Virus record (IMG/VR): IMGVR_UViG_2690316273_000014
Origin: a virus
Lineage: Duplodnaviria; Heunggongvirae; Uroviricota; Caudoviricetes
Direction: 5' to 3' (one strand)
Length of the DNA stretch: 10,824 nucleotides
Shown here: positions 3,135 through 10,824 of the stretch, piece by piece
Layout: every line of letters begins with the position of its first letter
How positions within the stretch are numbered: position 1 is the first letter of the stretch
Translations under genes and position numbers: made by a program
The notes under the pieces: generated by a model
Told to the model about the DNA's origin: nothing
What the model saw: only the letters and a program-made list of their open reading frames with translations
Databases searched by the model: none

Positions 3135-3737
3135 ATGAGCTATTTTCTGCGCAAAAAATGGATGGTAAATTTGTCCGGGGCAGGAAAAATTTTATGGGCG
3201 CTAAACATGAAAAAAGATTTGTATCCTTATTTGATTTGCATGACAGTTTCAGGCCTGATCTTTATTTTCTTTTTCTTCTGGTGGCGGGCAGATATTTACA
3301 GGGTCACGTTTCTTAATCAGAGTATATCCCACTATTACATTCTGTTTAGCATGGGAATAGCTTTTCTGTTATCTCTGTTTTGGGTTAAGAAGGGGATAGT
3401 AAAACAAAGCGGCTGGAAGAGTCTGTCAGCATACCTTAAGGTTTATGCAGGGATGTGCATATTTGCTGGATTTTTTCTGATTATACCCCTTACAACACTA
3501 ACTTATTTTTTGCCTGGAGAGACATCGTCTTATGTTGCACCGTATCGGTATACTTCCGGTAGTTCAAAAAGTTGTTCTGGAGCTGAGGTGGATGACCCCG
3601 ATCTACATGAGAATATTCGCATTTGCTATCCGTATGGCAATTATGAGTACGATAATATTATCTATGTTGAAAAGAAAATTAATACATTAGGTGCGGTAGT
3701 AACATATGCACAGACCGCGCGTGATGATACTGAATGA
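3135..3737 (+). CDS. Hypothetical integral membrane protein (about 3 predicted TM helices plus C-terminal soluble tail); opposite-strand accessory gene in the ea/b region
   Basis: 200-aa ORF on the strand opposite to all neighbouring early genes. Hydrophobic stretches LICMTVSGLIFIFFFFWW, YYILFSMGIAFLLSLFWV and VYAGMCIFAGFFLIIPLTTLTYFL. Region is visibly AT-rich. Start is uncertain: ATG at 3135, 3162 or 3207, none with a strong Shine-Dalgarno. Possible promoter elements TTTACG/TATTAT near 3101..3125 are weak. No lambda gene is recalled here. Confidence 0.5.
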   Translation: MSYFLRKKWMVNLSGAGKILWALNMKKDLYPYLICMTVSGLIFIFFFFWWRADIYRVTFLNQSISHYYILFSMGIAFLLSLFWVKKGIVKQSGWKSLSAYLKVYAGMCIFAGFFLIIPLTTLTYFLPGETSSYVAPYRYTSGSSKSCSGAEVDDPDLHENIRICYPYGNYEYDNIIYVEKKINTLGAVVTYAQTARDDTE

Positions 3738-4751: not shown

Positions 4752-4906
4752 ATCGCCTCCCGTTTATTATTTATCTCCTCAGCCAGCCGCTGGGCTTTCA
4801 GTGGATTTTGGATAACAGAAAGGCCGGGAAATACCCAGCCTCGCTTTGTAACGGAGTAGACGAAAGTGATCGCACCTACCCGGATATTATCGTGAGGATG
4901 CGTCAT
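4724..4906 (-). CDS. Small hypothetical protein, 60 aa (lambda orf60a-like by size and position)
   Basis: ATG at 4906 overlaps the exo stop codon (4903..4905) in an ATGA arrangement, giving 60 aa, as recalled for lambda orf60a. The track's ATG at 4912 would add two residues. Confidence 0.55.
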
Positions 4907-5583
4907 CGCCATTGCTCCCCAAATACAAAACCAATTTCAGCCAGTGCCTCGTCCATTTTTTCGATGAACTCCGGCACCATCTCGTCAAAACTCGCCATGT
5001 AATTTTCATCCCGCTCAACCACGACATAATGCAGGCCTTCACGCTTCATTCGTGGGTCATAGTTGGCAAAGTACCAGGCATCTTTTCGCGTCACCCACAT
5101 GCTGTACTGCACCTGGGCCATGTAAGCCGACTTTATGGCCTCGAAACCACCGAGCCGGAATTTCATGAAATCCCGGGAGGTAAACGGGCATTTCAGTTCA
5201 AGGCCGTTGCCGTCACTGCATAAACCATCGGGAGAGCAGGCGGTGCGCATACTTTCGTCGCGATAGATGATCGGGGATTCAGTAACATTCACGCCGGAAG
5301 TGAACTCAAAGAGGGCTCTGGCGTCGTTCTCGTACTGTATTCCCCAGGCCAGCGCCTTAGCGTTAACTTCCGGAGCCACACCGGTGCAAACCTCGGCAAG
5401 CAGGGTGTGGAAGTAGGACATTTTCATGTCAGGCCATTTCTTTCCGGAGCGGGGTTTTGCTATCACATTGTGAACTTCTGAAGCGGTGATGACGCCGAGC
5501 CGTAATTTGTGCCACGCATCATCCCCCTGTTCGACAGCTCTCACGTCGATTCCGGTACGCTGCAGGATAATGTCCGGTGTCAT
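4903..5583 (-). CDS. exo: Lambda exonuclease (Red-alpha), 226 aa
   Basis: [65 protein letters not shown]...GFVFGEQWR matches lambda Exo as recalled, with a few apparent substitutions. 4-nt overlap with the bet stop. Confidence 0.97.
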
Positions 5584-6365
5584 ACAGCCACCTTCTGTTC
5601 AGAGGCTTTCTGTTTCAGGAATCCAAGAGCTTTCATTGCTTCTGCCTGTGTCAGTTCTGACGATGCGCGAATGTCGCGGCGAAATATCTGGGAACAGAGC
5701 GGCAATAAGTCGTCATCCCATGTTTTGTCCAGGGCAATCAGCAGAGTGTTAATCTCCTGCATGGTTTCATCGTTAACCGGAGTGATGTCGCGTTCCGGCT
5801 GGCGTTCTGCAGTGTATGCAGTATTTTCGACAATGCGCTCGGCTTCATCCTTGTCATAGATACCAGCAAATCCGAAGGCCAGACGGGCACACTGAATCAT
5901 AGCTTTATGCCGTAACATCCGTTTAGGATGCGACTGCCACGGCCCCGTGATTTCTCTGCCTTCGCGGGTTTTGAATGGTTCGCGGCGGCATTCATCCATC
6001 CATTCGGTAACGCAGATCGGATGATTACGGTCCTTGCGGTAAATCCGGCATGTACAGGATTCATTGTCCTGCTCAAAGTCCATGCCATCAAACTGCTGGT
6101 TTTCATTGATGATGCGGGACCAGCCATCAACGCCCACCACCGGAACGATGCCGTTCTGCTTATCAGGGAAGGCGTAAATTTCTTTCGTCCACGGATTAAG
6201 GCCGTACTGGTTGGCGACGATCAACAATGCGATGAACTGCGCATCGCTGGCATCGCCTTTAAATGCCGTCTGGCGAAGAGTGGTGATCAGTTCCTGTGGG
6301 TCGACAGAATCCATGCCGACACGTTCAGCCAGCTTCCCTGCCAGCGTTGCGAGTGCTGTACTCAT
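5580..6365 (-). CDS. bet: Bet single-strand annealing protein (Red-beta), 261 aa
   Basis: [66 protein letters not shown]... matches lambda Bet as recalled, same length. Overlaps exo by 4 nt; gam ends 5 nt upstream. Confidence 0.97.
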
Positions 6366-6370
6366 CCGTT

Positions 6371-6667
6371 TTATACCTCTGAATCAATATCAACCTGATG
6401 GTGAGCAATGGTTTCAACCATGTACCGGATGTGTTCTGCCATGCGCTCCTGAAACTCAACATCGTCATCAAACGCACGGGTAATGGCTTTTTTGCTGGCC
6501 CCGTGGCGTTGCAAATGACCGATGCATAGCGATTCAAACAGGTGCTGGGGCAGGCCTTTTTCCATGTCGTCTGCCAGTTCTGCCTCTTTCTCTTCACGGG
6601 CTATCTGCTGGTAGTGACGCGCCCAGCTCTGAGCCTCAAGACGATCCTGAATGTAATAAGCGTTCAT
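6371..6667 (-). CDS. gam: Gam (RecBCD inhibitor), 98-aa short form
   Basis: [60 protein letters not shown]...[10 protein letters not shown] matches lambda Gam from the internal start. Strong AGGAG Shine-Dalgarno precedes this ATG. Confidence 0.92.
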
Positions 6668-6788
6668 GGCCGAACTCCTGAAAATGGCTGTGAAAATATC
6701 GCCCGCGAAATGCCGGGCTGATTAGGAAAACAGGAAAGGGGGTTAGTGAATGCTTTTGCTTGATCTCAGTTTCAGTATTAATATCCAT
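6636..6788 (-). other. Out-of-frame remnant of the Gam long-form N-terminal extension, overlapping the 3' remnant of kil (6743..6793)
   Basis: ORF from ATG at 6788 reads [34 protein letters not shown], the recalled lambda GamL N-terminus, then continues [16 protein letters not shown] to a stop at 6636..6638 instead of joining MNAYY. The kil C-terminal coding frame ([16 protein letters not shown]-stop, ending 6743..6745) is present in another frame but has no in-frame ATG. Confidence 0.6.
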
Positions 6789-6921
6789 TTTTTGGGACTC
6801 CTGGCTGATTAAGTATGTCGATAAGGCGTTTCCATCCGTCACGTAATTTACGGGTGATTCGTTCAAGTAAAGATTCGGAAGGGCAGCCAGCAACAGGCCA
6901 CCCTGCAATGGCATATTGCAT
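6778..6921 (-). CDS. cIII: CIII (FtsH inhibitor) with altered C-terminus, 47 aa
   Basis: Hand translation from ATG at 6921: [47 protein letters not shown]-stop. First 46 residues match lambda CIII as recalled (54 aa), including the amphipathic core. AAGGAG Shine-Dalgarno upstream. Confidence 0.85.
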
Positions 6922-6993
6922 GGTGTGCTCCTTATTTATACATAACGAAAAACGCCTCGAGTGAAGCGTAATTGGTATGCGGTAACGCCGCGC

Positions 6994-7362
6994 TCAGGCG
7001 GCCTTGATAGTCATATCATCTGAATCAAATATTTCTGATGTATCGATATCGGTAATTCTTATTCCTTCACTACCATCCATTGGAGGCCATCCTTCCTGAC
7101 CATTTCCATCATTCCAGTCGAACTCACACACAACACCATATGCATTTAAGTCGCTTGAAATTGCTATAAGCAGAGCATGTTGCGCCAGCATGATTAATAC
7201 AGCATTTAATACAGAGCCGTGTTTATTGAGTCGGTATTCAGAGTCTGACCAGAAATTATTAATCTGGTGAAGTTTTTCCTCTGTCATTACGTCATGGTCG
7301 ATTTCAATTTCTATTGATGCTTTCCAGTCGTAATCAATGATGTATTTTTTGATGTTTGACAT
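6994..7362 (-). CDS. ea10: Ea10-like early protein, 122 aa
   Basis: 122-aa acidic ORF MSNIKKYIIDYDWKASIEIEIDHDVMTEEKLHQINNFWSD... between cIII and the N-proximal cargo, the position and size of lambda ea10. GAGGA Shine-Dalgarno before the ATG. Identity recalled with moderate certainty. Confidence 0.6.
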   Translation of the reverse strand: MSNIKKYIIDYDWKASIEIEIDHDVMTEEKLHQINNFWSDSEYRLNKHGSVLNAVLIMLAQHALLIAISSDLNAYGVVCEFDWNDGNGQEGWPPMDGSEGIRITDIDTSEIFDSDDMTIKAA

Positions 7363-7550: not shown

Positions 7551-8432
7551 TTATGACCACTTTTTGTTTGGGTTTCGTTGGTGAGCGTGGTTTACAGGAT
7601 TATTTGATATACCCCATAACTCTGACTCGCTTATCTCTACACGAGAGAAAGACCTGCTTTCTTTCAGTTCTTTTATAAACCTAGAACCTAAGATGACATC
7701 TATTGTACCAGAAAGTTCTTGTAAAAGATCTTTGTTTTTTCTGAGGAAGAAAATATCTTCTTTATATTTAATTTTTACATAGAATTTATTCTGTATTTTT
7801 AATATATCAAAGCATGGCAGATATCTATATCCCTCATATTTTCGCCACTGCTTAACAATTATAACATCTTTTTCATTTACTGCATTAATCAGCCCAAGAC
7901 CAAGTACAGGTATGAATATTCTATTGTCTGCCGAAAGCGTACAATTATCACCACCAGGCAAATATGTATAAATCATGTCGGAATTTTTATACGCATCAAC
8001 GAATGCACGTAAGAAGCGTACATATTTTTGCCATCCGTTTATACCGAATTTACCATATAAGTATTCTTTATTTGTTAGAAGAAAACTATTTGTATCAGGA
8101 TCCTTATCTACAGACCTGTCGATAAGATCTCCAACTACGTTTACAAAGTCAAAGACAGAGTTTAATAAGAACAATTGTCTTTCAGTAGGGCGAATTTCAA
8201 TTATGTAGCCAGGATGAAGACGATATTGCATCTGCTTACGAAGTATACCGAACGCTTGGGTCCGAGCATCTGAAAGCAACTTCTTGTCGCCATCGCCGTG
8301 AGCATTGTTTCTAATAAAACTGATATAATTTGCTAATTTTTCAGCCTCTTTTTTGTGTTTTTTTCGCTCTGATGCTGAGTCTATTGGTTTTGGTATGGAC
8401 TTGTAATCAATCTTCTTCATTACGTACCTCAT
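7551..8432 (-). CDS. Hypothetical 293-aa protein occupying the sieB/ral slot directly downstream of N; candidate superinfection-exclusion / abortive-infection / anti-restriction cargo
   Basis: Long uninterrupted ORF whose ATG (8432..8430) overlaps the N stop codon (8431..8429) as ATGA. Markedly AT-rich and lysine-rich, unlike the flanking lambda-like genes. No similarity to lambda SieB or Ral recognised and no motif confidently identified. Followed by a short hairpin plus T-rich tract at 7520..7549. Confidence 0.75.
   Translation of the reverse strand: MRYVMKKIDYKSIPKPIDSASERKKHKKEAEKLANYISFIRNNAHGDGDKKLLSDARTQAFGILRKQMQYRLHPGYIIEIRPTERQLFLLNSVFDFVNVVGDLIDRSVDKDPDTNSFLLTNKEYLYGKFGINGWQKYVRFLRAFVDAYKNSDMIYTYLPGGDNCTLSADNRIFIPVLGLGLINAVNEKDVIIVKQWRKYEGYRYLPCFDILKIQNKFYVKIKYKEDIFFLRKNKDLLQELSGTIDVILGSRFIKELKESRSFSRVEISESELWGISNNPVNHAHQRNPNKKWS

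Positions 8433-10575: not shown

Positions 10576-10824
<249 letters not shown>

Follow-up and report, generated by a model that had tools for sequence, protein, structure and literature searches.

The DNA analysed here, a stretch of 10,824 nt that we call the window, carries a derived 98-bp deletion, very probably formed at the AAAAAATGGAT repeats of a phage 434-like prophage, and the deletion very probably makes a kil null allele that does small damage to the neighbouring genes and can be tolerated by the phage.

The window is the left arm of a phage 434-like prophage at the lambda attachment site beside ybhC. BLAST analysis of the whole window placed the host gene ybhC at positions 1-1284 and the beginning of the prophage at about 1331, and phage 434 matched the window at 99.3% identity across 87% of its length, beginning at the attP core. 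The 434 immunity region, lambda-type int/xis genes and the ybhC flank were all found. The closest prophages in complete E. coli genomes, such as those of EC12 and 19KM2326N, occupy the same site and are 99.6-99.7% identical to the window (99.7% for EC12 in the whole-window comparison), and the ybhC flank and prophage are common to 80 complete genomes. The annotations of 434 and EC12, together with the ORF lists, showed that the minus strand carries int, xis, several small genes, exo (4903-5583), bet (5580..6365; 261 aa, intact and downstream of gam), gam, cIII, ea10 (6994..7362; DUF2528, 122 aa, upstream of cIII in the pL operon), the Nun-peptide gene, N, hex and the 434 repressor gene, and that the plus strand carries cro and cII. 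The gene order matches the cIII-kil-gam region of phage 434 (OL657226.1) and lambda (NC_001416, 33187-33463), and the DNA over cIII, the gam leader, gam and bet is 99.7% identical to 434 and about 99% identical to lambda-like sequences. An AT-rich gene of 289-293 aa (7551-8432, minus strand) separates N from ea10, at the place that ral, orf28 and sieB take up in lambda. The 434 record describes its product as a protein that contains a C-terminal peptide of Nun and resembles the HK022 Nun transcription terminator; no Pfam family is recorded for it. An ORF for a 200-aa putative membrane protein (3135-3737, plus strand) is intact in both the window and phage 434, and its EC12 counterpart, with a 1-nt difference at 3505, is annotated as a frameshifted pseudogene.

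Exactly 98 bp that are present in phage 434, in lambda and in the most similar E. coli prophages are absent from the window, at 6782/6783-6793. Multiple alignment of the window with 434 and lambda revealed one clean gap of 98 columns in otherwise near-identical sequence, and the full-length comparison with EC12 also placed a gap of 98 nt at window position 6782. When the 651 nt from 6350 to 7000 were used as the query, the best 40 phage matches were all split in two pieces that spanned 748-749 nt. The junction (6783..6793, minus strand), as located by the alignment, the gap against EC12 and the repeat positions in 434, consists of the single surviving copy of an 11-bp direct repeat, AAAAAATGGAT. 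It reads CCCAAAAAATGGATATTAATACTG on the gene strand, and a wider gene-strand reading across the junction region gives ...CAGCCAGGAGTCCCAAAAAATGGATATTAATACTGAAACTGAG.... The first-pass annotation of this DNA, made from the sequence by itself, had proposed that roughly 100 bp and about the first 33 kil codons were lost; the size agrees with the 98 bp found, and the coding loss measured here is Kil residues 1-31. Its proposed check, an alignment with the lambda region, contains the expected gap, and both lambda and 434 differ from the window in spacing. It had also read the cIII stop codon as falling 8 nt past the long-gam ATG with no space left for kil, as we find with the TAA at 6780..6778, which starts 8 nt after the A of the ATG at 6788.

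In the kil+ relatives 434, EC12 and 19KM2326N, two perfect copies of the 11-bp direct repeat AAAAAATGGAT frame the 98-bp segment: the first lies at the start codon of kil, and the second follows 98 nt further downstream, at the long-gam ATG (6208-6218 and 6306-6316 in 434, locus L001; spacing 98). In 5 kb of the 434 pL operon, no other direct repeat of at least 11 nt has its copies within 200 nt. The kil-side copy of the lambda reference, AAAGAATGGAT, is imperfect, and among the kil+ IMG/VR contigs listed, 80 of 120 had the perfect 434-type repeat and the other 40 the lambda-type mismatch. The proposal that the deletion arose between repeats at the kil and gam starts is therefore sound for 434-type parents, in which the repeat is a perfect 11-mer, and less exact for the lambda reference. 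Short-direct-repeat deletions in E. coli are known as a slipped-misalignment, RecA-independent class. The window resembles them in several features: the parental repeat is perfect, one copy is kept, the length of the deletion equals the repeat spacing (98), and there are no filler bases, so that the 98-bp loss bears what we take to be the signature of deletion between short direct repeats. Misalignment or recombination between the two perfect AAAAAATGGAT copies would produce it, whether by replication slippage or by a Red-mediated or RecA-mediated route. Slippage promoted by secondary structure was considered and rejected, because the 135-nt 434 segment holds no hairpin of note between the repeats (DNA fold z = -0.72; 46 of 200 shuffles were as good).

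We used a 57-nt junction probe, designed so that kil+ DNA matches it at most at 72%, to search for the deletion elsewhere. No full-length junction match was found in 5,426 complete E. coli genomes (1,147 partial matches in 1,083 genomes) or in 50,697 phage records (105 partial matches), and the exact junction was found 0 times in the GTDB representative genomes, IMG/VR and the JGI metagenomes; IMG/VR holds the kil+ configuration on at least 120 contigs. The possibility that the allele is unique to the window was nevertheless rejected when an exact-protein look-up of the truncated CIII protein found at least 24 contigs. About 20-26 contigs encode the exact 47-aa CIII (EHY3389929.1, ENR8362146.1, HFF1488291.1 and HGX4267816.1 are among its accessions); they come from draft assemblies at NCBI, from Logan and from one metagenome at ENA. 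Intact CIII and Kil are each present on at least 1000 contigs, so that the truncated CIII is rarer than the intact one by a factor of about 50 or more. The junction was identical in 10 of 10 retrieved loci, which had been assembled independently (NCBI, Logan, ENA), and one of these loci (L007, GCA_019575435.1) matches 9,986 nt of the window at 100% identity. That the gap is an artefact of assembly or sequencing has nothing in its favor beyond the general possibility, and its probability is negligible: the k-mers used by assemblers are much longer than an 11-bp repeat, and the same 47-aa CIII and the same junction come from separate assemblies. A natural kil deletion had not been reported earlier in the literature that we searched; one candidate report, PMC5727415, was rejected because it matched the word 'killing' only.

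The direction of the change is also clear. The nearest relatives are kil+ with identical flanks, and 19KM2326N even shares the gam-leader haplotype of the window; the state without kil is therefore the derived one. The opposite direction, in which the kil-less state is ancestral, kil was inserted in lambda, 434 and their relatives, and the 11-bp repeat is the footprint of the insertion, would fit the direct repeat that flanks the 98-bp segment like a target duplication, and also the last 15 codons of kil, which share the gam leader in a different frame, as could be expected of an overprinted gene. The carriers, however, are nested in kil+ haplotypes at 99.6-100% identity, truncated CIII is the far rarer form, and the junction is in no reference genome or phage collection searched. 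An ancestral kil-less state is thus very improbable and, for the window, effectively refuted. The 98-bp deletion is real, derived, rare and not private to the source genome.

What remains of kil is its 3' end. A tblastn search matched Kil residues 32-47 only, at 6793..6746, with 100% identity over 16 aa, and three-frame translation showed these codons to be followed by the stop (6745..6743) and to have no in-frame start, the whole remnant covering 6743..6793 on the minus strand. The frame is closed by a stop 6 codons upstream, with no ATG, GTG or TTG in between, and a complete Kil ORF with a start and a ribosome-binding site is absent from the window. The presence of a C-terminal kil stretch without an in-frame start had been noticed in the first-pass annotation and is borne out by both methods; the 'orphan kil 3' end' is, however, the gam leader itself, so it is not independent evidence of a deletion. 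Neither a second kil copy nor a KilR-like substitute was found in the window, which covers 10.8 kb of prophage, or in ten related loci; an intact kil elsewhere, which would have spoken against the proposed loss, is thus missing from the window. A 42-aa Kil that begins at Met6 (protein P0019) is recorded on 269 contigs, which could be explained by alternative start calling or by loss of the first ATG; Kil without its N-terminal 5 residues is reportedly still active, although weaker. Kil, a protein of 47 aa, inhibits division in a manner that depends on FtsZ and ZipA. Its helix-turn-helix core, residues 4-38, is required, and losing either helix or the turn abolishes activity (PMC11762379). In the window, helix 1, the turn and most of helix 2 are deleted. 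Because the remnant comprises residues 32-47 without a start and the core 4-38 is required, the allele is predicted to be a null, and we strongly infer that Kil activity is lost.

The deletion also changes the end of cIII, which overlaps kil. The truncated gene (6778..6921, minus strand; ORF list and alignment) encodes 47 aa, of which residues 1-46 are native and are followed by Tyr and a TAA stop (...PKNGY*). Intact CIII has 54 aa and ends in ...PKNGSNNYGYPD; comparison with the window ORF showed that the native C-terminus, SNNYGYPD, is missing and that the last 8 residues have been swapped for a single Tyr, as the earlier annotation had read. [quoted passage not shown] Pfam PF02061 (FtsH inhibitor CIII) is recorded for the exact 47-aa product. 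The lambda cIII RNA thermoregulator (Rfam RF01804; 6876..6934, minus strand) is intact and full-length, with a cmscan score of 88.5 bits against a gathering score of 50 and a match to model positions 1-59 of 59. Since residues 1-46 are native and the thermoregulator is intact, the 47-aa CIII is probably still active, a prediction that we hold with moderate confidence. Loss of the last 8 residues could affect the stability of CIII or its recognition by FtsH. A 47-aa 'partial' CIII, P0005, was considered as a second truncation allele and rejected because it is a contig-end fragment only.

On the other side of the junction, the short form of gam is intact. GamS (98 aa; 6371..6667, minus strand; ORF list and PF06064, the RecBCD inhibitor family) has no differences from 434 and keeps its own ribosome-binding site, AGGAG at 6675-6679; it corresponds to Gam residues 41-138, which are active (PMC5218532). 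The ATG at 6788 had been read in the first-pass annotation as the beginning of a Gam long-form extension, and this reading failed: translation from there runs out of frame with GamS for 50 codons (6636..6788, minus strand; ...HSGSS*). The resulting 'long Gam' leader, which is frameshifted relative to GamS, crosses the GamS Shine-Dalgarno sequence and start codon and reaches its own stop 29 nt past that ATG, and its exact product is recorded on 17 contigs. It is out of frame because of an extra T at 6681-6684 (A4 rather than A3 on the plus strand), which comparison with EC12 and alignment identified together with a T>C change at 6686 as a gam-leader polymorphism (6681..6686, minus strand). The in-frame 40-residue GamL extension (138 aa) is thus missing from the window, and it is in frame in two other carriers of the deletion, L005 and L013.

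We rejected the leader frameshift as a change that compensates for the deletion. The same gam-leader haplotype is found in the kil+ strain 19KM2326N, and beside another inhibitor gene in SK1144, and the 50-codon leader state is found in 25 of 81 kil+ IMG/VR contigs among those listed. As it is present in kil+ genomes too, the frameshift is unrelated to the deletion, and with 25 of the 81 kil+ viral contigs out of frame, GamL is not conserved as a coding feature in lambdoid phages.

The deletion nonetheless changes what stands in front of the leader, since it joins the ribosome-binding site and Met-Asp start of kil to the gam leader. The former kil Shine-Dalgarno sequence, AGGAG (6798..6802, minus strand), which is annotated as the kil ribosome-binding site in 434 (L001 6199-6203), lies 9 nt upstream of the ATG at 6788 and now heads the ORF that begins MDINTE. 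The fusion yields the 50-codon ORF in the window and full-length 138-aa GamL on the two other backgrounds. In L005 (6134-6550) and L013 (809-1225), the kil Shine-Dalgarno sequence and ATG are in frame with the 138-aa GamL; in kil+ phages, the long-gam ATG has no obvious ribosome-binding site. L005 and L013 are therefore predicted to make a long Gam isoform from a strong start. Translation from the kil ribosome-binding site across the GamS start could alter Gam levels. In sum, the window shares CIII residues 1-46, the cIII RNA thermometer and GamS with 434 and lambda, and it differs from them in lacking the 98 bp, the kil start and Kil 1-31, in its CIII of 47 rather than 54 aa, and in the placement of the kil ribosome-binding site on the gam-leader ORF.

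Comparison of the carriers, based on a table of variable sites over 2.1 kb, showed that the deletion is carried on three sequence backgrounds at two integration sites. Background A comprises the window, L004 and L006-L012, and matches the kil+ strain 19KM2326N. Background B is L005; of the variable sites scored in the 2.1-kb comparison, a single one separates it from phage 434. Background C is L013, which has a lambda-like ral-cIII arrangement without ea10; the kil+ sequence most similar to it, that of strain 2018-10-2CC, shows 99.4% identity and has 98 nt more. Outward from the junction, the first sites that tell the backgrounds apart are about 100 nt away on the downstream side and 190-250 nt away on the upstream side. 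Either the deletion has occurred recurrently, or it has been transferred on patches shorter than about 350 bp, and we give recurrence a clear though modest preference, because any deletion at the 11-bp repeat yields the same junction.

A single origin followed by spread to the other backgrounds by short-patch homologous recombination is the less probable reading, although by no means a slight one. It would account for the exactly identical junction of all carriers and would suit the high mosaicism of lambdoid phages, of which L004, with its pL operon next to a different integrase at icd, is an instance. It would also explain why L013 has CCCAAAAAATGGAT at the kil start, as the other carriers do, and not the CCCCAAAAATGGAT of its closest kil+ relative, 2018-10-2CC. 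On the other hand, on each flank of the deletion the closest polymorphisms already switch, with L005 tracking 434, L013 the lambda-like ral-cIII backbone and the window 19KM2326N, so that double crossovers within less than about 350 bp would be needed twice, and the perfect 11-bp repeat at 98-bp spacing is a natural substrate for recurrent deletion. Recurrence thus remains the reading that we prefer.

In L004 (9398-10766 and 10880-12130), the background-A pL operon is joined to a different, 380-aa integrase and excisionase by icd, not ybhC, and this arrangement is a mosaic exchange of the integration module. Because background A has been joined in this way to another integrase, the allele has persisted long enough for such an exchange. 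A more far-reaching reading, in which the 11-bp repeat is a built-in hotspot at which lambdoid prophages shed Kil repeatedly, each time independently, under host-level selection, and in which rewiring of the kil start to the gam leader makes the deletion a two-in-one regulatory switch, is doubtful in our judgment. If it were true, L005 and L013 would overproduce long Gam, and the window would make a 50-residue leader peptide across the GamS start.

The window prophage is damaged on its other arm as well. The cII gene (10576..10767, plus strand) is truncated after codon 64 of 97, as shown by translation and by comparison with EC12 cII, and is followed by the terminal 57 nt of IS100 (IS21 family; 10768..10824, plus strand). 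The multi-copy match, the match to the end of an annotated IS100 and the junction sequence identify this as the istB-proximal end of the element, inserted in cII, and the window ends inside the element. A CII'-IS fusion ORF is created, which ends at the last base of the window. L006, which is 4 substitutions away from the window across 10 kb, has an intact cII, and there this end of IS100 (36-92), oriented as in the window, abuts codon 47 of O. The IS100 positions in the window and L006 reflect either two insertions or an IS-mediated adjacent deletion. Six other carriers have cII, O, P, ren and ninB intact within the retrieved flanks, so the kil deletion preceded the IS100 decay and is not tied to it. 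Any link between the deletion and prophage decay would accordingly be specific to the window lineage.

Published work on kil suggests what the loss would mean for the host. When a defective lambda prophage in which pL alone is expressed becomes derepressed, the cells filament and die, and deletion of kil restores colony formation (PMC3961180). With pL derepressed in the absence of Kil, the host would be spared the filamentation and death that Kil causes, and on the basis of this published biology, better survival of transient or abortive induction is to be expected. It is thus reasonable to suppose that loss of kil would stabilize the prophage. The phage would tolerate the loss, kil being dispensable: kil- lambda is viable, and its lysis comes about 30% earlier at an undiminished yield (PMC3961180). 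A lysogen induced without completing the lytic cycle would be favored, and incomplete induction seems likely in the window lineage, where IS100 interrupts cII, or O in the sister genome. The survival benefit may therefore matter in this lineage, because its prophage is damaged on the other arm. A selective benefit of the deletion is plausible, though we propose it with low confidence. The rarity of the allele, on about 20-26 contigs against thousands that are kil+, argues against a strong general advantage.

We weighed two other accounts of how the allele came to be kept. The deletion could be a neutral or slightly deleterious passenger in a decaying prophage, unselected, and we regard this as a serious contender that falls a little short of an even chance. 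The allele is rare, short-repeat deletions arise spontaneously, and the window lineage has IS100 in cII and its sister has IS100 in O, all as would be expected of a passenger. Yet the same lesion is found on three backgrounds and at two attachment sites, mostly with intact early genes; of the pL genes, it hits the only one that is known to be lethal to the host when induction is non-productive (PMC3961180); and it spares the functional cores of both overlapping neighbors. The other account places the advantage on the side of the phage, such that kil- phage with a shorter latent period outgrow kil+ phage in some conditions. The earlier lysis with unchanged yield (PMC3961180) is in line with this account, and most carriers have seemingly complete early regions and together occupy two integration sites, consistent with a circulating viable phage. 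We consider a phage-side advantage unlikely, given that kil is kept in the overwhelming majority of lambdoid phages and that no free-phage record among those searched has the deletion.

The natural allele can be compared with laboratory kil- alleles of lambda, namely the mutants of Greer 1975 and an in-frame deletion of codons 20-26 (Haeusser et al. 2014, PMC3961180). All are loss-of-function lesions in the same gene, and the phenotype expected of both kinds is the same: no filamentation, survival of the host when a non-lytic prophage is derepressed, and a viable phage. The 7-codon deletion of Haeusser et al. was engineered to be non-polar and leaves cIII and gam untouched (PMC3961180). In contrast, the natural allele has lost the cIII/kil overlap, has a changed CIII C-terminus and a re-targeted kil translation start, and arose spontaneously at a direct repeat in wild isolates. 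It is otherwise an ordinary prophage gene loss, an event of a well-understood class in a well-studied gene.

The value added is modest and consists of evidence for a deletion hotspot on several backgrounds and of natural near-isogenic pairs. Laboratory studies depend on engineered mutants; the allele is a clean kil null from nature in which both overlapping genes keep their functional cores. L005 paired with phage 434, and the window paired with the 19KM2326N prophage, are near-isogenic kil+/kil- sets with which the cost and gain of Kil for lysogen and phage could be measured in wild backgrounds. The allele also marks the site of the pL operon that is most prone to short-repeat deletion, which is relevant to strains with defective lambda or 434 prophages in which induction survivors are selected, for example recombineering hosts.

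Other prophages of E. coli encode proteins that are comparable to Kil. KilR of Rac and DicB of Qin are small prophage inhibitors of FtsZ-dependent division that, like Kil, are toxic when derepressed. The cryptic prophages Rac and Qin retain their inhibitor genes under repression, whereas the window prophage has had its inhibitor gene destroyed. In SK1144 (L015 466-672), the kil position is occupied by a gene for a 68-aa 'phage encoded cell division inhibitor', KilR-like by eye, which ends at the same point of the gam leader as kil does. The cIII/kil slot appears to be an exchangeable division-inhibitor cassette with a mosaic boundary inside the gam leader.
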